NCBI GenBank assembly: GCA_051652765.1
Contig: JBOFUV010000116.1
Coordinates: 1 to 45,078 of the forward strand
Reading direction: 5' to 3'
Length of the DNA: 45,078 nt
Source of the DNA: Microcoleaceae cyanobacterium
GTDB taxonomy: Bacteria; Cyanobacteriota; Cyanobacteriia; Cyanobacteriales; Microcoleaceae
The position numbers were made by a program, and so were the translations under genes. This document shows, piece after piece, positions 21,386-45,078 of the stretch (the first letter of the stretch is position 1; every line of letters starts with the position of its first letter). Under the pieces are notes generated by a model, which worked only from the letters and a program-made list of their open reading frames with translations, did not search any database and was not told where the DNA came from.

Positions 21386-21516
21386 AGTTTATAGCACCTT
21401 AGCTTTAGCAGTGGACTAGGATCACTGAAAGTACGATCAAGAATCCTGCTGCGACGAATCCCACCTGCAAAAAACGCAAAAAACGCCTGAGCGAGTAGCA
21501 ACTACGCTATCACAGT

Positions 21517-21671
21517 CTTCTCCCGATGCCTACGAGGTTAGCTGACGGGCTAGGGCTGAGAGATGCCCCCCTTCAAAATTTTCAGCTTTGAAAGTATGCC
21601 CCTATGCTCAAAAGAGCTTGGTTCCCCCGCTTTCTCCTTCATTCCTCGTCAACTCGTAAGTTTGAAAGAAC
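21517..21671 (-). ncRNA. c-di-AMP riboswitch (ydaO/yuaA class)
   Basis: Minus strand AGCGGGGGAACC ... GGGGC ... CCCGTCAGCTAACCTCGTAGGC hallmark segments; 5' of the ABC operon; U-rich tract downstream. Confidence 0.88.
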
Positions 21672-34444: not shown

Positions 34445-34573
34445 TCAGGGGTTATTTTTTCTCATTGCTGAGTGCAGGCCATTCCGAGCCAACAAAATCG
34501 GTTTCACTTGGTCAAACCCAAACTTCTGGTAAAAAGCCTGCATTTCTGGTAAGCAACACAGCATGATCCCTTC
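34445..34573 (-). pseudogene. 3' end of a GNAT N-acetyltransferase gene, interrupted at 34573
   Basis: Hand translation EGIMLCCLPEMQAFYQKFGFDQVKPILLARNGLHSAMRKNNP*; FY.K.GF is the GNAT C-terminal motif; an in-frame TAG lies two codons upstream, inside the element. Confidence 0.75.
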
Positions 34574-34593
34574 ACTCTAGGATATTCCGAACC

Positions 34594-35874
34594 TCAAAAA
34601 AAGAGAAGCCTCGGAATTTCACTTTGGATTCTGCAAAACTCTTGCTTCAGATTTTTGTAGAGTTCGTAAGTCGTTCTGAACAATAACCTAATAATCGCGT
34701 CATCTCCCCCAATTGCATCATCACCTGCTTTCATTCGACCATTGCCGATGTCATGTAGACGACGGTGGGTTTTGTGCTTCTCCCAAATCGCTTGTCCCTG
34801 TTCAGATGGAATGTATTTACCTCTTTCCTTGTCAAACCTACCCTTAGCCCACATATAGAGACTGGAACGGCAAATCTTGGAGCCGTGAAATTTCTTCTTG
34901 AGCTGGCCGCTATCTCCTGACTTTTCCAAGGTGTAGCTCAAGCCCAAATAAGCCTGAAACTGCCTTTGAGAGTAGTCATGTTTACTACGCTTCCCTTTGC
35001 TGTTGGTGTGATGTTCGAGATAGACTCGACCGTCGATCAGGAACTTCTCAAAGGGATAGATCTTGCACAGCAAGTAGCTCTTGTTTTTGACCCCAAACTT
35101 GAACGGGCTCATGGCCTGTAAGTATGGCTCAAACTCAGGTTTCCTTAAGAACTCTTCCATCTTCTCCAGGACGTGCAGCTCTTGGCGCTTCAGGTCGCAA
35201 AGGCGCTTAGCATGAAAGCGAGTATAATCACTTAAGCCTGCACCTACAGTTGAACTGTAGGCTTTTCTGAATTGGGAGTAGGTGTGCTCTCCGGCAAGTG
35301 CAGACCAGAACGGGTGACACCCCAACTTGGGGTTAATGCCACAGTCCTTGGCCTCATGCTGAGCCCATTCTGGGAACTCATAGCAAAGCCTTTGCCGAAT
35401 TTGATTAATCAGGCTATTACCAACCTTGTCAATCTGTTCAACCTCATAGAACCAATCCTGGAGCAGCCGGATATCTTGGTTGAACTTGATGAACCTTTTC
35501 TGACCATGCTTGTCAATGAATCTTTCATCGAAATAACAGGCCCCTAAACATAGTGCATCTTCGGGATCTCGTTTATTTTTGAAGCCGTAGCTCATGCGCT
35601 GCGCCTTCAGATCGGCATGACCAATCCACAAGACCTCAATTCCCTGATCCTCGCATCTCTCAGCAATCAACCTGCTATACCACCCTCCAGTTGGCTCCAT
35701 TACGACCTTGTCTGGATTCATCCCCCAAAGCAGATCAAACCCATCCTTATTGCAATCAACCCGAACAAATTCTTTTCGATTCTGGGAGTAGTAGCGCTGG
35801 AGGTTGTTCGGAAAACAATCCAATGCAGCGGCTACGGCGTGGTTACGCCCCACGTCAAGTCCAACAACTATCAT
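34594..35874 (-). CDS. IS110-family (DEDD/RuvC-like) recombinase, divergent
   Basis: GLDVG, MEPTG, KRDPEDA (DEDD set); coiled coil; C-terminal F.AYLGL....EKSG...GS...R..LY with the catalytic Ser. Confidence 0.88.
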   Translation of the reverse strand: MIVVGLDVGRNHAVAAALDCFPNNLQRYYSQNRKEFVRVDCNKDGFDLLWGMNPDKVVMEPTGGWYSRLIAERCEDQGIEVLWIGHADLKAQRMSYGFKNKRDPEDALCLGACYFDERFIDKHGQKRFIKFNQDIRLLQDWFYEVEQIDKVGNSLINQIRQRLCYEFPEWAQHEAKDCGINPKLGCHPFWSALAGEHTYSQFRKAYSSTVGAGLSDYTRFHAKRLCDLKRQELHVLEKMEEFLRKPEFEPYLQAMSPFKFGVKNKSYLLCKIYPFEKFLIDGRVYLEHHTNSKGKRSKHDYSQRQFQAYLGLSYTLEKSGDSGQLKKKFHGSKICRSSLYMWAKGRFDKERGKYIPSEQGQAIWEKHKTHRRLHDIGNGRMKAGDDAIGGDDAIIRLLFRTTYELYKNLKQEFCRIQSEIPRLLFF

Positions 35875-35921
35875 TATTTAAAAATTAAACTGGTTTGGAT
35901 CGTCGCTGTTCTCCCTTAAAA

Positions 35922-36164
35922 GGACATATAACTTCCGAATCCATTGAAAGCCCACAACCAATACGGGGAGCTTAATTCACTCTGTAAGTGTGTCCAGGAG
36001 TGGAAGGCGGCGAAGAGGAGCTTTTGAAGGAATTCAAGCCCGCGCCCATTGCTGGGGGTGCTTACTTCTACTTAGAAGCCCTCAATCTCCGACCTTCCAA
36101 CTACTCCGAAGAGCAGGCGAACAAGGGAGCGACCCTTTGTCCGCAATCCCAGGAACGTGGGATT
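35922..36164 (-). ncRNA. Predicted bridge RNA (5' hairpins, target-binding loop, donor-binding loop)
   Basis: Hairpins at 36145-36164 and 36117-36144; stem-loops 36107-35997 and 35995-35922, each reading guide(..GAA)-NN-AAGC(A/U)CCCC...GGGCUU-linker-guide(..UUC); guides match 34566-34578. Confidence 0.8.
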
Positions 36165-36249
36165 TCTGAGCCACATCAGCTCCACCAACTAGCCGATCCT
36201 GCTAGTGGCGATCGCCTCGCTAGAGACGATTCATCAGGCGGTATTTAGG

Positions 36250-36597
36250 CTACATCTGATCTAATTTATTCTGTGTCAGGTAGGTTTGATATTCTTGCCT
36301 AGACAGCAATGGGAAGATCCCATAAGCTGCTGCTCTAATAGTCCACTGGCTGATCTCTTCTGTAGAACCTAGGGTTCTGACATCTAGCTTCAGTCTTTGC
36401 AACTCTGATCGCCTTGAGTAACAAGGAGCTGCCACGTAGTAAAGCAAGTAGGCTTTCACCAATAGGAACCGCGCATCAGAGCAGTAGCCCCACTTAACGT
36501 CCCTGACGGACAATAAAAGTTCAGGGCATTCTTTTTTCAGATAATCAAACTGGACGGGCCGCCCGCAAGTAAGGTAGGGAGGTCTGAAATCGTTCAT
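36250..36597 (-). CDS. Hypothetical protein
   Basis: ATG-initiated ORF in a tight leftward operon. Confidence 0.6.
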   Translation of the reverse strand: MNDFRPPYLTCGRPVQFDYLKKECPELLLSVRDVKWGYCSDARFLLVKAYLLYYVAAPCYSRRSELQRLKLDVRTLGSTEEISQWTIRAAAYGIFPLLSRQEYQTYLTQNKLDQM

Positions 36598-36601
36598 TTG
36601 T

Positions 36602-37006
36602 TTACACCCGATCTAAAGATTTGGACGCGACCACTTCAAGGTTGTTGAAAACCCTTCTTAGGTTTGAGTCTGTTTCCTCTACTTTCTCTTCCGAGATAGG
36701 CGCACATAGGATGGCGATCGCCTCAACCAGAGAGTTATTGATATCAATCAGGCTTTCCCAGATTGACGTGTATGCCCAGCTTGGATCGGTCGGGCTGTGA
36801 AACGGCTTACTGCAACCGTCAAGTCTGAGACTCCAGCGGTCTAAGACCTCCATAAATTCTTCAGCCTCATCGCCAGATAGAAAGAACGTTGACCCACCTC
36901 TGAGGGAGATCTTTACCCGGACTAACGCTTGATCCTGGAAGACCTCACACCCGGCGATCTCCTCCAAGTCAATCCATATTTGTTCAAACTTAATTAAGTG
37001 TTTCAT
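36602..37006 (-). CDS. Hypothetical protein
   Basis: ORF with AGGAGG-type RBS, overlapping the upstream gene. Confidence 0.65.
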   Translation of the reverse strand: MKHLIKFEQIWIDLEEIAGCEVFQDQALVRVKISLRGGSTFFLSGDEAEEFMEVLDRWSLRLDGCSKPFHSPTDPSWAYTSIWESLIDINNSLVEAIAILCAPISEEKVEETDSNLRRVFNNLEVVASKSLDRV

Positions 37007-37289
37007 TTTTTCTTCCTCCTAAATCGTTTAAGAAATTCCATTGCCACTGTTCCAGCGCTTCTCCAATGTCTCTAGGGGCGAACCCCAGACATTTGTCAAA
37101 AATTTTCATCCATTCGACAATCTCCTTCGGTGAAAGGGAGAATTCATAGATCCGACTAACAGAACTCCCACCCTGAGAGAGAGTGAGCGTTAGTCGAGGT
37201 TCTCTGGGTGTTCGGGTTAGTGGTTGTTCCTCGCACATAAGCCATTTTTTGACATTGCTTTCCTTGACAGACCCCCATTGATTTCTCAT
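36990..37289 (-). CDS. Hypothetical protein
   Basis: First ORF of the leftward operon; start uncertain. Confidence 0.5.
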   Translation of the reverse strand: MRNQWGSVKESNVKKWLMCEEQPLTRTPREPRLTLTLSQGGSSVSRIYEFSLSPKEIVEWMKIFDKCLGFAPRDIGEALEQWQWNFLNDLGGRKNETLN

Positions 37290-37353
37290 ATGAGAATCTA
37301 AAATCCATAATTACTTATATGAGATAATATTGTCAAGGATTCTCATATGTAAA
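37283..37353. promoter_or_regulatory. Divergent control region with three palindromic operator-like sites
   Basis: TTCTCATATGAGAA (37283, perfect), TACTTATATGAGAT (37312), TTCTCATATGTAAA (37340); TTGACA on the minus strand at 37336-37331. Confidence 0.7.
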
Positions 37354-37388
37354 ATTAGAGGTAATGCAGATAGAGATGGGAGCAAATC

Positions 37389-37586
37389 ATGAATCAAGAC
37401 AAGAAGCAACCGGGAAGACCGCCAACAGGGAGAATGAACGCCTCATTCAGGGTCAACCCGTCCCTGTGGGAGAGATTCTCTCGACTGGCGGAGCAGAAAT
37501 CGGTAAACAAATCCGACATTCTAGAAGAATTCCTGATCAACTATTTGGAGGGAAAATTTCATCTGTCGATCAGGCAATCGTCATAG
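37389..37586 (+). CDS. Ribbon-helix-helix (CopG/Arc-like) regulator
   Basis: GRP, beta strand ASFRV, helices LWERFSRLAEQ and NKSDILEEFL; GGGAG RBS. Confidence 0.75.
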   Translation: MNQDKKQPGRPPTGRMNASFRVNPSLWERFSRLAEQKSVNKSDILEEFLINYLEGKFHLSIRQSS

Positions 37587-37589
37587 AAA

Positions 37590-37729
37590 TGATTGATCAA
37601 TGTCGAGAACAGCTTGAAGAATCCGCCGCATGTATCGAGTGGTACCAAAACCAGGAAGCAAAGATTCTAAAGCGATTGAACAACCTGGAACAAATTCTTA
37701 AACGAGCATCGGCAGACGAAGAAGAATAA
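37590..37729 (+). CDS. Small coiled-coil protein (3' part of ORF 37364-37729)
   Basis: MIDQCREQLEES...LKRLNNLEQIL heptads; followed by a terminator; start uncertain. Confidence 0.45.
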
Positions 37730-37825: not shown

Positions 37826-38353
37826 ATGAATCAACTCAAAATCAACTTAAACGGTCACGCCCTACTGCCACCCACCCAGTTCGAACAACACGACAAGCGC
37901 TTAACCCTCGTCTATATAGAAGAGAATCCGGGGGCATCCCACAGAGAAATACTGGCTCACCTCAACAACGTTAGGGCAGTTCCCCTGAGACTGGAGCAGT
38001 TGAAATACTTCACCAGTCAGCTCGAACAGAAAGGAGTGTTGGGGCTACAAATAATTCGTTCCCCAAAAAAATCTCAGTCCGATATTTTTTTTTGGGAACG
38101 AATTAAATTAGAGATTCGGTGGTTGAAAGCTGGTGGAAAAGCCAGGGGGGATCACAAGTACCCCTGGCTGTGCGAGGGGAAGAAACCAATCAAATATATT
38201 GGTGGTGGTAATCAAGAAAGTGCGATCGCTCAAGCCAGAGTCGAACTGATTGAGGATTGGATTCTACAAGGGCTTGGCAAAGACGAAATCATAGCCCTAG
38301 TGCCCAGGCTTCAGAGTAGTTTGAAAAAAGTCAAGAAGAAGCCTAAGGATTGA
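37826..38353 (+). CDS. Hypothetical basic protein, possible winged-helix DNA-binding N-terminus
   Basis: YIEENPGASHREIL pattern; Lys-rich C-terminus. Confidence 0.55.
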   Translation: MNQLKINLNGHALLPPTQFEQHDKRLTLVYIEENPGASHREILAHLNNVRAVPLRLEQLKYFTSQLEQKGVLGLQIIRSPKKSQSDIFFWERIKLEIRWLKAGGKARGDHKYPWLCEGKKPIKYIGGGNQESAIAQARVELIEDWILQGLGKDEIIALVPRLQSSLKKVKKKPKD

Positions 38354-38583: not shown

Positions 38584-39174
38584 ATGGCTAAAAATCGCGG
38601 GCACGGAAAAGCCACTATTTTAAGCAATAAGGATTACGAGAAAATTTACGACCAATTGGTCACAGATCAACAGCGGTGCATCTTCTCCCTGTTGCGATAC
38701 ACGGGTGAGCGAATCTCTGCCGTGCTTCAACTTGAAGTCAGCGACGCTTACCAGAACCCCTGGGAGTGCGAACCCAGAGATCAGATCACCTACAGGGCCA
38801 TCACCCGAAAAAAGTCAGACGGCAAGGCTATCACCCGGCAGGTTCCAGTCAACCGAGCAATGCGGGCTGAGCTGAAGAACTTCCAACCCCCGTTGACTGG
38901 GTTCTTGTTTCCCAGTCCGTTACGACCAGATGCTTCCATTTCTCGACAGAGTGTAGATCATTGGTTCCGGCGTGCTTGTTCATCAGCCGGACTGGGACGA
39001 CAGGGGATATCATTGCACAGCCCCCGGCGAACCTTGATTACCAAGCTTGCCCGTGAGGGAGTGCCCGTGGCGATCCTGAAGCAGGTCACCGGACATCAAT
39101 CGACAGAGACCCTAATCAAACACTATGTGGATGTAGACGAAAAAGCAGTTGTTCGGGCAATGGAGCTGATCTAA
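38584..39174 (+). CDS. Tyrosine recombinase (catalytic domain only)
   Basis: YTGERISA (R), K, HSPRRT (HxxR), TGH, HY (Y nucleophile). Confidence 0.93.
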   Translation: MAKNRGHGKATILSNKDYEKIYDQLVTDQQRCIFSLLRYTGERISAVLQLEVSDAYQNPWECEPRDQITYRAITRKKSDGKAITRQVPVNRAMRAELKNFQPPLTGFLFPSPLRPDASISRQSVDHWFRRACSSAGLGRQGISLHSPRRTLITKLAREGVPVAILKQVTGHQSTETLIKHYVDVDEKAVVRAMELI

Positions 39175-39477
39175 CATTCCCCTCAGGCTTGGTTTGCGTT
39201 TAAGCACCTGGCGTTGAAAAATTACCCCGGCAAAGTTCACCCGGCGCTCGGTCTAAAATCCTTTTAGTTCAAAAGTTCCCCCTTGGTAGGGATCAGGGTT
39301 GAGTAGATGTAGATGAGAAAGCAGTCGTTCGGGCAATGGAGTTAATCTAAGATCCCCCTGGTCTTGCGACTACCCCAAAGTATTGCTATCAAAGGATCGT
39401 CTCCGAGAGAAATCACCCGGCGCTCGATCTAGAATCCTTTCAGCTCAAAAGTTCCCCCTTGGTAGGGGTCAGGGTTG
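39127..39477. repeat. 176-bp-period tandem duplication covering the 3' ends of two convergent genes
   Basis: 39127-39174 ~ 39303-39350 and 39237-39301 ~ 39413-39477; the intervening 62-bp segments differ. Confidence 0.9.
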
Positions 39478-40379
39478 GGCGTGTATTTGGAAACAACCAC
39501 AGTGTCATACTTCCCTGTACCTGGATTTGTCGCTACAAACCTTCCCACGTAGCTAGTCATGGTAGGGCTAAGGGTGAGCAAGTTGTTTTGTACGTTACTT
39601 GCCCAGAGGTTCTGACTTAATGCCCCGGCGATCGCCGAATCAATTGAACCGTATTCTGGATTGATTACATCACTAGCCACAGCCCCAATCAGCCCCATGA
39701 TCCGCTCCAGATCCAGCCACTGGAACCCAACAACGCTAGAAGTAACAGTAACGACAGGATCAGCTGTAACCGCAAAATTGATAGCTTGCCCCATCTGAAA
39801 TTGATCAACAATCACCACCTTGTAGCCCGTGATATTCTGTTCGGAGTCGAGGAACTTGACCGCATTCTGCTCAAACTCATTGCTAGGGTTATCAAAGAAT
39901 CGTTCAAATGGAGAACTGTAATTTTCCCCGGTGCCAATGGCTAGCTTAATCTTTATGGATACAGGCATTTCATCTTCCTCAGCTCCAATAATTCCTGCGA
40001 TTGTGAAGTTTGACCGGACAATCAATTCAATCGTAGCGTCAGCTTGCCCCTGGATGCTCACCTGTTGCTTGTTGGTCTGTTCTCGGAATGTTTGACCAGG
40101 GGCTAGTCGGAATGGGATCTTAGAGCTACCCACAAACACCAAAAGCTCATCATTTGAGGTATTTGTGATGATGACTTCTCGAACATAGGTTTTGTCAGTG
40201 ATTTTGGCTTCAGTTAGGATAGTTTGATTAGAGCCGTCAAGGGCAATTCTTGCCCCGTCTGTATGACTGAGATCTGGATTGCCAACAATCCCATTAAAAT
40301 TTAAATTATTCAGCTTGTCTAGGATTTTATCTAGATGTTCAGAATAGTCAAACGCAAATGAATTACCAGAGAACGGCAT
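39429..40379 (-). CDS. Hypothetical beta-rich protein, possible virion component
   Basis: VIITNTSNDELLVFVG...RLAPGQTF beta-sandwich-like pattern. Confidence 0.55.
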   Translation of the reverse strand: MPFSGNSFAFDYSEHLDKILDKLNNLNFNGIVGNPDLSHTDGARIALDGSNQTILTEAKITDKTYVREVIITNTSNDELLVFVGSSKIPFRLAPGQTFREQTNKQQVSIQGQADATIELIVRSNFTIAGIIGAEEDEMPVSIKIKLAIGTGENYSSPFERFFDNPSNEFEQNAVKFLDSEQNITGYKVVIVDQFQMGQAINFAVTADPVVTVTSSVVGFQWLDLERIMGLIGAVASDVINPEYGSIDSAIAGALSQNLWASNVQNNLLTLSPTMTSYVGRFVATNPGTGKYDTVVVSKYTPNPDPYQGGTFELKGF

Positions 40380-40406: not shown

Positions 40407-41195
40407 ATGGTAACTTACTCAGGATCAGCCTTTGTACAGATGAGCTTTGCTGGAACGCCTATTTTAAGAACAGCTACACTACTCAGCTTCAATCAATTAA
40501 CAAATGAGTATTTGGAAGATGAGATCTTAACTCGGTCTTTCAGATTGGAAATTTTTAATCTGATTTTGATTAGCCATATTAGATCATTGCCTGTATCGGC
40601 TCCACCCAAAATCAGAGACTTTGACTCATCCTATGATCGTTGGATGGCTCTGGAAGAGCATTTTCAGGACAAAGTTCACATGAAAGCCCGAGTGGCGATA
40701 GGAAACTATCCCCTGATGGAAGCTAGGATTTTCAACTATAAATCACCATGGAAAAATAATTTAACGGAAGATTTCAACCAAACTGGAAAGCGACTACAGA
40801 TTGGTAAGAATCAGTCTGTTGAATTAATGCTACATCAGGACTACTACCAAGGGGTAGAGGGTGATATTCTTGATTTGCATTGCAACTATGTTCTGTATCG
40901 TGATACTGAGTCAGAGGGGCTTTCTAGGAGTGTAAGCTCAAAGAGTATGGAGGTTTCAGAGTTTAAAACCACTGTCCTAAACAACACCTCTGTTTATTCA
41001 ATTGACCTAAAAAACGATGGGGAAGAAATCATTTTTATTGATTTCTCTTCTGATCCATCTAGTGACGGTATTTCCCTTAAGTCCGGTGAATCCTTCTGTT
41101 TCAATGAAGAGGGAATACTTCTCCGCGAAATAAACCTTAAAACATATTGCTTACCCAAAAAAACATCTAGACTTGGAATCATTTATAAATATTAA
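40407..41195 (+). CDS. Hypothetical protein, possible virion component
   Basis: C-terminal IDLKNDGEEIIFIDF...GISLKSGESF pattern like that of the neighbouring protein. Confidence 0.55.
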   Translation: MVTYSGSAFVQMSFAGTPILRTATLLSFNQLTNEYLEDEILTRSFRLEIFNLILISHIRSLPVSAPPKIRDFDSSYDRWMALEEHFQDKVHMKARVAIGNYPLMEARIFNYKSPWKNNLTEDFNQTGKRLQIGKNQSVELMLHQDYYQGVEGDILDLHCNYVLYRDTESEGLSRSVSSKSMEVSEFKTTVLNNTSVYSIDLKNDGEEIIFIDFSSDPSSDGISLKSGESFCFNEEGILLREINLKTYCLPKKTSRLGIIYKY

Positions 41196-41203
41196 ATCTA
41201 AAA

Positions 41204-43171
41204 ATGGCAGAAACAGCCCTCGGCTATCAAGACGGCCCGTCTATTTCTGAAGTCAAAGAAACTCTAAGAGAAGTTGCCTCACAAGATCCTCACTTAGATA
41301 CCTTTGAGGAAAGATCAAGTCCTTACGATGAGGGAGACAAAGGGATAGAAGAAGTCCGTAGACAGAGAGAGCTGCAAGATCTAGAGATTGCAGTTGAAGA
41401 ATTGGATATTGACGCTCAACAAACTTACTTTGATGAATACGATGGCTCTGCCGGGGGGCTGAGGAAAGATAGAGATATCAACAGGGGAATAGACAAGGGC
41501 AATCCTACTGAGTTCATGAGAGATGAAATAGAAGAAGGTCATTCTAGTGCTACTTTTGAGAGTTTCGAGGGATCTGAAGGAATGGATCTTTGGCCCGAAA
41601 TCGAAGAAGCCATCAAGGATGGGGCTACCGCTGCCGAAGAGGAGAATAATTCCTCAGCACATAGAGAGACTCAGTTTGGAGAGGGTAGTACTACGGTTAA
41701 TGGAAGGAAAGTAGATCGAAAAGGACTTAAAGACTGGCTTGAATCAGTGGGGCCTAGCAAGTGGGGAATTGGAAAAAGCTATAGCCAGCTTGCTCACGAA
41801 ACAAGGGTTAGAAGCAGTAAAGGTGGTGTAAGCATATCTACTGGAGGGTTTAGTAAACGAATAAAAGTAGGGGGGATCGTTAGGTATGACGATCTATACT
41901 TTCAACGCCCTTGGAGTTCGAGTAATCCATATGGGAGTCCGGCAAGTAATGACTATGCTCGCGCTTACTGTGAAGGGCTATCATCTGCAAGCTTTGGCGG
42001 TAGCAATGCGTCCGGATCTAAGAGGGCAGAAACTCGCAGGGAATCGGATAGCGGCATCAGCGGCGGAAGATGGCTAAGTCCTAGGGAACTAATTGATGAT
42101 TTATTTTTTTTCCCTGAGGGTCATTATGGTTGCGGTTATGATATATGCCCTAAAAATACGACCCGAACATGGGTTGAACGAAACGGAGTTGTTGTTACTT
42201 CTACGCATCACAGAACCTACAAAGGTAGCCAGTCAGCAGTAATTGGTGGGTATGATCTAGATGGTGGCTTAATAGATGTTCCTCCAAGAATAATTATCGA
42301 TGACTCTATGGAAAAGTCTTGCTGTCAGATGATTGCGCGAATTTACGATGTCATTAATCCGGATCAATATCCCGGAGAGATGCCATCTACCATGCTTAAT
42401 GACGATCCCGATCCTAAAACAATTAATTCCCTCACTGACTTGCTGCTTCACAAATTTCGCTTATGGGACGAGGCAACGGGTCAGTATCCAGTGAAAATCA
42501 AAATTCCTGACGCGGATCGAACCCAGGAAGGGGAACAGAGCCTTGATCTAAAATTTCCTAATCAAGCCGAACTTTTGGCAGAAATTTACGGGTTAGTGAT
42601 GAACCAGAGCGTAGACAATGACCTCTATGAAGATTATCTAGCCCGAATCATTACTGAGATAGGCTTAACTCGAATATCGGCACGACAGGCTTATGATGCC
42701 TTGAAAGAGATCTTAGACTGGCTAGGGGTTGACTGGGAAAAACGAGAAGGCAAGATGCAAATGACCTTTACGCCGGGGGAGGAGATGGCCGAAAAAGTAC
42801 TGCAAAATTCAACCCAACCCTATCAGCAACCTCATATTAAAGAGGGAGAACAAAGTCTAAAGGAAATTCTCCAACAGCTTCTAAATGCTGCTGCAATTAT
42901 CCGCTCCGTTCACTTCAGACCAGTAGACAGGAAGGGGGATGTTAAAGGGCAAATTATCAACAACCTCAAGCGAGGTATTGACTTGTATGACAAGCTCTCT
43001 AACATTGAAAGCAAGTCTGACGATGGTCAATCATGGGAAAAATTTAAGGAGATGGTTCAAGCCAATTTTTCGACACCTGGAGATACTCAGAAAAGTGATA
43101 ATCCCCTAATCAAAGATTTCAAACCAGGAAGCGTCCCAGGCTCCAGTCCCAAACCCAAGTCCCAACCCTAA
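41204..43171 (+). CDS. Large hypothetical protein (acidic N-terminus, Gly/Ser-rich middle, helical C-terminus)
   Basis: 655-aa uninterrupted ORF. Confidence 0.7.
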   Translation: MAETALGYQDGPSISEVKETLREVASQDPHLDTFEERSSPYDEGDKGIEEVRRQRELQDLEIAVEELDIDAQQTYFDEYDGSAGGLRKDRDINRGIDKGNPTEFMRDEIEEGHSSATFESFEGSEGMDLWPEIEEAIKDGATAAEEENNSSAHRETQFGEGSTTVNGRKVDRKGLKDWLESVGPSKWGIGKSYSQLAHETRVRSSKGGVSISTGGFSKRIKVGGIVRYDDLYFQRPWSSSNPYGSPASNDYARAYCEGLSSASFGGSNASGSKRAETRRESDSGISGGRWLSPRELIDDLFFFPEGHYGCGYDICPKNTTRTWVERNGVVVTSTHHRTYKGSQSAVIGGYDLDGGLIDVPPRIIIDDSMEKSCCQMIARIYDVINPDQYPGEMPSTMLNDDPDPKTINSLTDLLLHKFRLWDEATGQYPVKIKIPDADRTQEGEQSLDLKFPNQAELLAEIYGLVMNQSVDNDLYEDYLARIITEIGLTRISARQAYDALKEILDWLGVDWEKREGKMQMTFTPGEEMAEKVLQNSTQPYQQPHIKEGEQSLKEILQQLLNAAAIIRSVHFRPVDRKGDVKGQIINNLKRGIDLYDKLSNIESKSDDGQSWEKFKEMVQANFSTPGDTQKSDNPLIKDFKPGSVPGSSPKPKSQP

Positions 43172-43270
43172 ACATGAATTTGACAGATTAATACAACGAG
43201 ACAAAGCGATCTCAATTTGACCCTAGCTTTTAATCCTAAAAAGTCTCTAGAGAGTAATTTCAAAATGGTT

Positions 43271-43370
43271 AGGGTTTAAATTCTAATAACCAGAGTTTAA
43301 ATTTTAATAGTCAGAGTTTAAATTTTAATAGTTAGGGCTTAAATTCTAGTGGCTAGGATTTAAATTCTAA
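43271..43370. repeat. 5 x 21-bp AT-rich direct repeats (AGRGTTTAAATTYTAATARYY)
   Basis: Units start at 43271, 43292, 43313, 43334, 43355. Confidence 0.85.
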
Positions 43371-43452
43371 AATTGTCTTAAAAGGTCTCGCAAATTATCT
43401 AAAACTTCCCTAATCCCAAACCCAACCCCAAACCCAACCCCAAACCCAGATC

Positions 43453-44991
43453 ATGAGCTTTGCTATTCTTGCTAAAAATTTGCCCTCAAGAAAGGTCAGG
43501 GCGGCAATCACCGGATCACCTGGCGGGGTGAGGATCTTTGCCAAGTCCGATGAACTGGCGGCGGCGGCCTCTGGTATTGGGGGATTTATCAGGTCTGCAT
43601 TCAGGCGGCTGGTTGGGTTCATCTCTCAAGCCCTGAATTTGGCATTTCAAGCTATTCGGTTCTCGTTCACTAAGTTGTGGCAGTGGACAGTTAATACTGT
43701 TCAGTACTTGTGGACATTCAACTGGGACGTGTCCGATACAAGCATCGATGCTGAACTTCAGAGGATGTGGAATTCAACTGGAGGACTGCTAGGAGGGTTT
43801 GCCGGACAACTCGTTGGTTGGACTGCTTGCGGGTTCGCTCCAGGTGCTGTCATTGCTGTATTTAATGAACCCCTTGGACGTTACCTCATGGCGGAAGTTG
43901 GGCAAGAGGCAGTAGAGGAGCTGGCTGGATCACTTGCATCTATCATTCAAATCAGCGCTCAAAACCTTGCTAAGGCAACATTTCTGTGGACGTTTAAGTC
44001 AATCAGGAGTCTAATCAAGCGCGGGTTGAAGCCTCAAGGTATCGATCTAACGGGTTGGGGGAACGATGAAGAAAAGGACTGGAGTTTTGCGAGACAGCTA
44101 CAAAAGAAGGTTGGAAGTATCCAAAATGAATGGTGGCAAGAATTCGTTGAAGAGTTCTTCGAGGAAGCGTTTGACAGTTGCCAAGAGGCAGGATATGCCC
44201 TGGCTGGAGCTGCCGATAGTTGGTATGCTCAACAGGAAGAATTGAAGCGTTCAGGGTTGTTAGGACAAAGTCGAACAATTGAGTTTTACCCAAACAAGGA
44301 AGTCAAGTCCGAACGTCTGATCCTCACGGGCCCCGAACAATTAGTTAAAGCCGGGGTAATTTCCGCTCTCAATACCAGGGAGCTGCTGGATAACCGACAA
44401 GCTGAGATGGTGAGCAGTCAGGTGGATTTGGATGTCATCACTCCATTAGAATCGGTTGGCTTGGAATTAAAGCTAGAATTCTACAACTTTCCCGAAACGC
44501 CTTATTTTACTAAAGACCGAAGGAAGGATGTAGTCAGAAGTCAATTAGTTGTCCCTAATGCAAACCGAGCCAAACTGGGCTGGAACGAATTTAAGGGATT
44601 GTTCTCAGGGCAAGTTTTCAGCAAGGGAATTTATAGTGGTCTAGCAGTTCTAGACAACGGTAAAAGATTGAAGTTGTACGCTTCAAGCGAACAAGAAGTT
44701 GAGCAAATGTTAGTCAAAATGGCTCAATTGACAACCGCTGAAATTATTTATCCATTGCACATTACCAAGCGAACAAAGTTTGAAGATACCGCTAAAAAGC
44801 CAGACATCAAACCTCAATACTTAGGCTACGTTCACATCGTCAACTGGCCTAAAATCACCAACTACCAAAAGAAGAAAGGAATTAGACCAACTGGCAAGTA
44901 TGGCAAGGTTAGACTCCCGATGCAGGCAAAAGAAAAACCGAGCTGGTGGGATGAGGATTTAAGAAAAGCTCTGTCTACAGGTCTAGCCTAG
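43453..44991 (+). CDS. Hypothetical protein with Trp-rich amphipathic and Gly-zipper helices
   Basis: 512-aa ORF; GGLLGGFAGQLVGW segment; followed by a terminator. Confidence 0.7.
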   Translation: MSFAILAKNLPSRKVRAAITGSPGGVRIFAKSDELAAAASGIGGFIRSAFRRLVGFISQALNLAFQAIRFSFTKLWQWTVNTVQYLWTFNWDVSDTSIDAELQRMWNSTGGLLGGFAGQLVGWTACGFAPGAVIAVFNEPLGRYLMAEVGQEAVEELAGSLASIIQISAQNLAKATFLWTFKSIRSLIKRGLKPQGIDLTGWGNDEEKDWSFARQLQKKVGSIQNEWWQEFVEEFFEEAFDSCQEAGYALAGAADSWYAQQEELKRSGLLGQSRTIEFYPNKEVKSERLILTGPEQLVKAGVISALNTRELLDNRQAEMVSSQVDLDVITPLESVGLELKLEFYNFPETPYFTKDRRKDVVRSQLVVPNANRAKLGWNEFKGLFSGQVFSKGIYSGLAVLDNGKRLKLYASSEQEVEQMLVKMAQLTTAEIIYPLHITKRTKFEDTAKKPDIKPQYLGYVHIVNWPKITNYQKKKGIRPTGKYGKVRLPMQAKEKPSWWDEDLRKALSTGLA

Positions 44992-45027
44992 AAAAGTTGC
45001 TGCACCTCTAGAGGCGCAGCAACTTTT
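44992..45027. terminator. Bidirectional-type intrinsic terminator
   Basis: AAAAGTTGCTGCACCTC-TA-GAGGCGCAGCAACTTTT. Confidence 0.8.
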
Positions 45028-45078
45028 GATAGCTTGCCAGAAACAAAAATTTTATTAATGATGAAAAAGTCCAGTTAA

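Follow-up and report, generated by a model that had tools for sequence, protein, structure and literature searches.

The window analysed here, a 45,078-nucleotide stretch of DNA that makes up the whole of one contig (C116) of a Microcoleaceae cyanobacterium (genome of 5.04 Mb in 158 contigs, 99.97% complete), contains a host gene split by one end of a large insertion. On the minus strand, positions 34581-34562 read CCT AGAGT GAA GGGAT CATG, which includes a right, attR-like junction (34566..34578) made up of the left-donor bases AGAGT (34578-34574), the core GAA (34573-34571) and the right-target bases GGGAT (34570-34566). From the GAA onward, the same strand encodes the last 42 residues of a GNAT acetyltransferase (34445..34573; stop codon at 34447-34445), beginning EGIMLCCLPEMQAFYQKFGF; both the junction and this reading frame had been proposed in an initial annotation of the sequence and were borne out. 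On the insertion's side of the junction, an IS110-family recombinase gene ends about 15 nt away.

The GNAT tail alone matched no Pfam family. Used as a query, it led to GNAT genes in 5 of 30 other genomes, three of which in turn retrieved the missing 5′ half (102 codons) on contig C19 of the host (2879-2574, minus strand). The initial annotation had placed this half on the minus strand beyond position 45078 and had predicted from the RNA guide that it would close with AAGTA-GAA; it does lie on the minus strand of a contig that overlaps the window, and it ends in S-Q-V-E, read on that strand as TCC CAA GTA|GAA|TCGTTAGG. The left junction (C19 2578-2566, minus strand) is AAGTA|GAA|TCGTT, and the two ends of the insert have only the 3-nt core GAA in common. 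The two contigs overlap by 84 nt (44995..45078 of the window) with a single mismatch, located in a hairpin, and C19 is the only contig of the genome to match the window's end. Joined, they delimit an insert of 12,994 bp, here called element A; the same genome carries the elements B (contigs C92 and C87) and C (contigs C84 and C94).

Rejoined, the GNAT ORF is 144 aa long with the junction at residue 103, and it aligns with intact homologues without a gap at that point in four of four cases. No intact allele with the empty site was found: the same-genus orthologue (L002, on contig C102 of genome G002) is uninterrupted, lacks the target site and is too diverged, and a 25-letter pattern for the intact empty allele had 0 matches in genome contigs, a set possibly devoid of near-identical genomes. 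Genome G001 contains no close match to the genome of the window. Compared with the other homologues, L002 is missing about 20 residues close to the N-terminus, and the gene downstream of it differs.

The recombinase (426 aa; 34594..35874, minus strand) scores 362 bits against the NCBIfam model NF051857 (cut-off 180), a protein family already named by NCBI as an IS110 family transposase. It falls below the cut-off of NF033542 and matches Pfam PF01548 and PF02371 weakly and under their cut-offs, with the weak PF02371 match at residues 302-344. The DEDD RuvC-like tetrad (D7, E60, D103 and D106) is invariant in 26 of 26 aligned homologues, as is the catalytic serine S319 (S319-G320) of the C-terminal Tnp domain. 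Judged by its sequence, the enzyme is a member of the IS110 bridge recombinase family. NF051857 is above cut-off in 25 of the 301 genomes of the phylum, which points to a common and overlooked class of cyanobacterial proviruses, and recombinase homologues (E≤1e-20) occur in 40 of the 201 genomes of the order. With the recombinase alone as query, no locus was found in general genome-contig or viral-contig sets, nor any among GenBank phages.

The 375-nt gap 5′ of the recombinase gene folds better than shuffled sequences (z −2.6) and, aligned with 14 relatives, shows two internal loops in which the guide segments are variable. It contains a predicted bridge RNA (35900..36144, minus strand; 3′ end approximate) with these two loops. 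In the target loop, the left target guide (LTG) AAGUAGAA (36073-36066) matches the left target, and the right target guide (RTG) AUUCCUUC (36033-36026) matches the right target with one G-U wobble, its perfect pairing partner being GAAGGAAT. In the donor loop, the left donor guide (LDG) AGAGUGAA (35983-35976) matches the left donor, and the right donor guide (RDG) (AAU)GGAUUC (ending at 35937) matches the right donor with one bulged base. The sequence TCCATTG was considered as the right-donor flank and rejected, as the actual flank pairs only with this one-base bulge. All four predicted guides match their counterparts, that is, both targets and both donors, and the GNAT gene is split in frame; on these sequence matches, guide-directed integration of element A is very likely.

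The initial annotation had held that the element targets a specific 13-bp site, AAGTA-GAA-GGGAT, in a protein-coding gene. The RNA-guided character of the site and its predicted left half have stood, with two refinements: one G-U wobble, and a target that is not unique in the genome. The 13-mer is present once more, unoccupied, on the minus strand of contig C3 near 39576. A target that pairs perfectly with the guides of element A is absent from the host genome; three one-wobble sites are unoccupied, one of them identical to the used 13-mer.

Support for the guide assignment comes from related loci. Flanks were fetched for part of the recombinase matches, giving 42 loci, three of them from the host genome itself. 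Parsing yielded both a donor loop and a right junction in 33 of the 42 and no junction in the remaining nine. The RTG matched its own flank at 7.5 or more of 8 positions in 20 of the 33 parsed loci, as compared with 13 of 1,050 cross pairs. A left junction was present in 14 of 22 loci with more than 10 kb upstream (cross pairs, 47 of 456), and 12 of these 14 run on into donor bases beyond the two searched (TCCCCA in eight, TCGTTA in two, close variants in two). The left junctions of L044 and L064 were dropped as chance matches. All of these counts are descriptive, since the loci are kin and so not independent.

The elements of the host genome allow the same comparison at close range. Contigs C92, C87, C84 and C94 all begin in one 99-nt repeat, and the fit of the guides, the type of donor and the continuity of ORFs were used to pair them. 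The recombinase on C92 is 79% identical to that of element A, the one on C84 only 27%. The paralogous elements B and C have target loops of their own, each fitting the flanks of its element; on C92, the donor guide is still that of element A. Across the cyanobacterial relatives, the guides of the predicted bridge RNA vary together with the target. Dozens of natural guide–target pairs are in this way available from which pairing rules can be read out, among them the GAA core, the wobbles and the bulged donor guide. Two loci of one complete genome (L058 and L060, G158) have the same guides at two sites, the RTG being perfect at one and mismatched at the other. In L070 and L078, the non-coding region 5′ of the recombinase is longer and contains apparent extra guide-like loops.

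Most relatives carry, immediately 5′ of the bridge RNA, the pattern CCGC-CUGANGA-stem-GAAA-stem-NUH-GCGG, which we take to be the core of a hammerhead ribozyme. In the window, a pattern parse gives a predicted type I hammerhead (36141..36241, minus strand) with CCGC-CUGAUGA, a long branched stem II, GAAA at 36166, stem III and an AUU triplet, and a predicted cut after 36145. A strict parse that demands all three stems succeeds in 24 of 41 genome loci and fails in 17; of the controls, 0 of 820 shuffles and 5 of 728 upstream regions from elsewhere pass. The NUH triplet is GUC in 17 of the 24 passing loci. Under a looser parse, 44 of 63 metagenomic loci pass. At the gathering score, no Rfam hammerhead was found in the window, and the best of 10 loci reached 25.1 against 48.5. 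The motif shares CUGANGA, GAAA, the NUH triplet and three stems of variable sequence with type I hammerheads (Rfam clan CL00010); it differs in scoring below the Rfam gathering scores, in the long branched stem II seen in the host genome and in its place directly 5′ of a bridge RNA.

Upstream of the ribozyme, three small ORFs (115, 134 and 99 aa; 36250..37289, minus strand), two of which have homologues in element B on C87, form a leftward operon that reads into the ribozyme, the bridge RNA and the recombinase. A sigma-70-like promoter candidate (37307..37336, minus strand; 10 of 12 consensus positions) heads this operon, in a scan that was weak overall (7 sites compared with 3.7 ± 2.1 in shuffles). 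The bridge RNA is about 11.4-13 kb from the left end, so a promoter formed at the junction of a circle cannot drive it. Its source is probably the early operon of the element, with the bridge RNA as the tail of that transcript, and processing by the predicted ribozyme would likely free the guide from the operon transcript. This arrangement suggests a route to a bridge RNA where the junction promoter is out of reach, and a ribozyme-processed guide is relevant to guide expression from long transcripts.

The rest of the element is cargo. A divergent regulator region encodes a 121-aa ORF of a conserved cargo family (37364..37729, plus strand), overlapped by a 65-aa ribbon-helix-helix ORF (37389-37586, plus strand). 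The product of the next gene (175 aa; 37826..38353, plus strand) belongs to the cargo family with the widest distribution (47 members), and one homologue weakly resembles an Arm DNA-binding domain. This gene is followed by an internal gene for a small tyrosine recombinase (196 aa; 38584..39174, plus strand; PF00589 E 5e-17; PHROG 216), which occurs in 22 of the 42 locus sets and is replaced by a serine resolvase family in three (L049, L057 and L063); we infer that it is an invertase or resolvase. The adjacent 316-aa cargo gene (39429..40379, minus strand), with homologues in elements B and C, is on the strand opposite to its neighbours and is possibly an invertible segment. In L058 (7293-9789) and L060 (6508-9007), the tyrosine recombinase is bracketed by oppositely oriented members of one cargo family, an arrangement that suggests an invertible receptor-binding switch. 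Positions 39127-39301 and 39303-39477 of the window form a 76%-identical direct duplication made up of the 3′ ends, facing each other, of the tyrosine recombinase gene and the 316-aa gene; it resembles a scar left when two related elements recombined.

The late module continues with ORFs of 262, 655 and 512 aa (40407..44991, plus strand), the last of which weakly matches a tape-measure PHROG at E 0.002. Related elements contain 10 members of the 655-aa family and 10 of the 512-aa family. Between these two genes lie short tandem repeats (43410-43450 and 43270-43345; GGGTTT-type hexamers and AT-rich units). On C19, the remaining 2.5 kb or so up to the left junction encode ORFs of 80, 187, 117, 112 and 120 aa, of which the 112- and 120-aa ORFs are hydrophobic and the 117-aa protein is a single jelly roll, and then a 197-aa endolysin (PHROG 10051, E 7e-54) that adjoins the left end. 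Several unrelated lysin families take this same end position among the relatives. Across the contig break, the cargo follows the order of element C, which is unbroken on C94. Of 28 loci with at least 10 kb upstream, 21 share three or more cargo families; the other seven share fewer, three of them none. L070 has none of the cargo families, and a transposase-like pair of ORFs interrupts the late region of L060.

A metagenome scan extended this picture. It returned 167 relatives, 80 of them listed, from which 79 recombinases were parsed, including one IMG/VR locus and some duplicate entries. Among the 79 listed loci, 24 have an integrated junction, 14 a rejoined donor junction (for example AGAGT|GAA|TCCCCA) and 7 an unclassified one, while 34, many on short contigs, have none. 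Two of the loci with a rejoined donor, L094 (12,017 bp) and L097 (12,350 bp), are whole contigs that bear 127-nt terminal repeats and keep the same early/late gene order; they appear to be closed circles, even if collapsed tandem arrays could look similar. A donor junction is not proof of excision, because tandem copies also yield one: L114 and L115 are a tandem pair of one element on a 75-kb contig with a donor junction between them. The evidence for an excised circular form comes from relatives of element A. The only IMG/VR relative, L088 (21,289 bp), is a tailed-phage contig with the same cassette of hammerhead, bridge RNA and recombinase and with what looks by eye like a donor junction. 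The cassette seems to be in use in more than one type of virus. The donor-junction pattern had three matches in IMG/VR, none near a recombinase or cargo gene, one cargo protein searched against IMG/VR gave no match, and a crude CRISPR finder gave 47 inter-repeat segments, none of which matched an element.

Several candidates for virion proteins were considered. Family searches of the cargo (Pfam, PHROG) recognised no capsid, terminase, portal or packaging ATPase, and at the level of motifs no GxxxxGK[ST] P-loop or Pfam/PHROG ATPase was found in the ORFs of element A. For the 117-aa protein, an eight-stranded jelly roll is predicted (pLDDT 92), whose structural neighbours tie: the non-viral PirA comes top (Z 9.3), followed by the STIV turret protein A223 (Z 8.9; rmsd 2.6 over 84 aligned residues) and a picornavirus capsid protein (Z 8.7). 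With a non-viral protein as top match, the fold is unspecific. Against BFVD, the 117-aa protein matched four phage proteins at E≤0.001. The conserved capsid candidate of element B, from a 200-aa family also found in eight other loci (705 representatives when clustered at 50% identity), has a confident predicted fold (pLDDT 89) and a best VIA Z of 3.7; at E≤0.001, Foldseek matched it to nothing in PDB or BFVD, which means neither a new fold nor a lack of relatives. Its positional counterpart in element A, the 187-aa ORF, showed no detectable homology to it and, used as a query, found only itself. In the atlas, the 187- and 262-aa ORFs had only sub-0.9 matches, to unnamed and mostly viral clusters. 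Of eight profile comparisons, the one between the 117-aa and 297-aa families gave a link (68%) and the other seven were negative.

Taken together, we favour reading the junction as the right-hand attachment site of a temperate, virus-like element of 13 kb that uses an IS110 bridge recombinase as its integrase, with a probability of roughly 0.7 for the full mechanism. A circular form with the donor AGAGT-GAA-TCGTT would have recombined into AAGTA-GAA-GGGAT under guide pairing with one wobble; the bridge RNA would arise as the tail of the early-operon transcript, its 5′ end freed by the hammerhead ribozyme. Induction would have the same recombinase–RNA complex excise the circle or copy it out, and the cargo would package it and lyse the cell. 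Element A has att sites, an integrase, a regulator and lysis genes, all features of temperate phages. A virus is its best reading, and the cargo probably makes virions.

The strongest competitor, which we consider improbable without being negligible, accepts the RNA-guided integration and takes the element to be something other than a virus: a non-packaged integrative element, a satellite or a degraded prophage, along the lines of large cargo-bearing IS110 elements. The failure of family searches to recognise a capsid or packaging gene speaks for it, as does the tailed-phage contig L088, which implies that the cassette can move between vehicles. Moreover, IS110 elements have been reported that reach ~100 kb and carry cargo derived from plasmids and phages; in these, as in element A, the IS110 gene bounds many kilobases and LTG and RTG match the flanks (10.64898/2026.08.14.744561). 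According to the accessible part of that report, however, those elements grow by progressive accretion of mostly plasmid DNA, whereas the element A family has a conserved phage-like module. Its cargo keeps an ordered early/late layout that the complete 12-kb circles retain, unrelated lysins occupy the same end position, and one late-gene family alone has 705 representatives at 50% identity clustering. These points weigh for the virus-like reading.

Filamentous phages offer the nearest precedent for an IS110 enzyme in viral integration. In Neisseria Nf and the Thermus phages phiOH16, Zuza8 and Zuza27, an IS110 transposase is thought to integrate and excise the phage, and an IS110-family gene lies at one end of the provirus as in element A; the accessible text describes neither guide–target mapping nor a ribozyme for them (PMC11437467). 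Element A differs from these phages, so far as they are described there, in having no P-loop morphogenesis ATPase motif, in its endolysin and hydrophobic holin-like ORFs and in its larger genome (PMC11437467). An inovirus with an IS110 integrase was rejected as an identity for element A because the motif-level test found no Zot-like P-loop ATPase.

The comparison with IS621 and other bridge recombinases of the IS110 group is closest at the level of the integration machinery. As far as the sections consulted describe them, both systems combine the DEDD and serine residues with a two-loop RNA 5′ of the ORF that holds LTG, RTG, LDG and RDG, and both have a core common to the two ends, a discontiguous RDG, a donor more conserved than the target and a circular donor (PMC11208160, PMC13626964). 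Judging from the same portions of these papers, IS621 is about 1.5 kb long with the core CT, as against 8-17 kb and the 3-nt core GAA in the present family, and its bridge RNA lies in the left end with a promoter formed at the circle junction, as against far inside in element A. Also unlike IS621 as presented there, the RNA of element A is headed by a hammerhead, and its recombinase belongs to the separate NCBIfam NF051857 and stays below the Pfam cut-offs. A compact insertion sequence of the IS621 type was rejected on account of the 12,994 bp of element A and the distance of its RNA from the left end.

Heterocyst elements (nifD/xisA, fdxN/xisF and hupL/xisC) and prophage switches of the sigK/comK type interrupt fixed developmental genes at sites specified by protein, that is, by tyrosine or serine recombinases. 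They bear comparison because, like element A, they are large inserts in a host ORF that precise excision can restore, and the initial annotation had likened the insertion to such elements. A domesticated switch of this kind, in which regulated excision restores GNAT, has in its favour that precise excision would give a full in-frame gene and that both halves are still open and well conserved. The likeness did not hold up beyond this, since the site of element A is specified by RNA and variable: the 12 two-ended elements (8.1-17.3 kb; elements B and C, also represented by L038, L072, L039 and L073, are 17.3 and 15.7 kb) occupy 12 different sites, of which 4 clearly split genes, 2 are ambiguous and 6 are intergenic, and the host has no nifD above the family cut-off in its 99.97% complete genome. 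A heterocyst gene-interrupting element was rejected on these two grounds. The lysis and virion-like genes of the insert and the uninterrupted same-genus orthologue without a target add to them, and a domesticated switch is accordingly very unlikely.

The variable targets, the intergenic half of the sites and the missing nifD argue instead that gene interruption is a by-product of guide matching rather than a conserved function, and the GNAT gene would have been hit through a guide match and a tolerated loss, not as a regulatory target. The other split genes are an NfeD-like gene, cut within its last 8 codons, and ORFs of 625 and 648 aa. Element B swaps those last 8 codons for 3 of its own, so the NfeD-like gene is nearly intact. 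The right junctions of L044, L046, L047, L055 and C84 lie about 20-60 nt upstream of a same-strand host start codon, and read-through from these elements could affect the host gene.

The initial annotation had further proposed that excision would restore the gene. An in-frame gene would indeed result if both strands were excised, yet restoration of GNAT is not certain, as the accessible portions of two reports on IS621 conflict: one describes mostly the release of a single-stranded circle, with the site left occupied (10.64898/2026.08.31.748434), which also tells against a switch, and the other the detection of post-excision junctions (PMC13626964).

That the internal tyrosine recombinase is the real integrase, with the IS110 cassette a passenger at the edge, is suggested by its matches to integrase families (PF00589 E 5e-17; PHROG 216) and its presence in 22 of 42 locus sets, but we regard this as highly improbable, for both ends match RNA guides that vary with the target, the ends have just 3 nt in common, and the enzyme is short, internal and exchanged for a serine resolvase in three loci. 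Just as improbable is that C116 and C19 are not adjacent and the GNAT halves stem from different insertions: the link does span a contig break whose 84-nt overlap has one mismatch in a hairpin, but the window's end is matched by C19 only, the halves complement each other exactly at residue 103, and the cargo order over the break is that of the unbroken element C (C94).

On the virus-like reading, a bridge recombinase would act as integrase for a whole lineage of 8-17 kb elements. Since a prophage lifestyle needs efficient excision, these enzymes may inform the question of IS110 directionality, cut-out versus copy-out, and they are possible native tools for large-cargo integration in cyanobacteria. 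More tentative, at somewhat less than even odds, is the wider proposal of a widespread and unrecognised family of 8-17 kb tailless temperate cyanophages with a capsid of unassigned fold, no packaging ATPase and a site chosen by a reprogrammable, hammerhead-cut bridge RNA. If true, it would represent a natural library of ribozyme-matured guides that drive the integration and excision of whole viral genomes. A literature search, with most subscription journals and preprint supplements outside its scope, found neither this cyanobacterial family nor a hammerhead-headed bridge RNA; the supplements may list such loci. In its available main text, the report on large IS110 elements uses neither 'cyanobact' nor 'prophage' (10.64898/2026.08.14.744561); a 2026 ncRNA atlas, in the part accessible, treats bridge RNAs and divergent hammerheads separately and likewise has neither term (10.64898/2026.10.21.760802); and the text at hand of a provirus-border survey does not contain 'IS110' (PMC13626063).

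Outside the element, the window also contains a c-di-AMP riboswitch (RF00379, 53.9 bits; 21513-21661, minus strand) upstream of an ABC transporter operon, an ordinary feature of the host.
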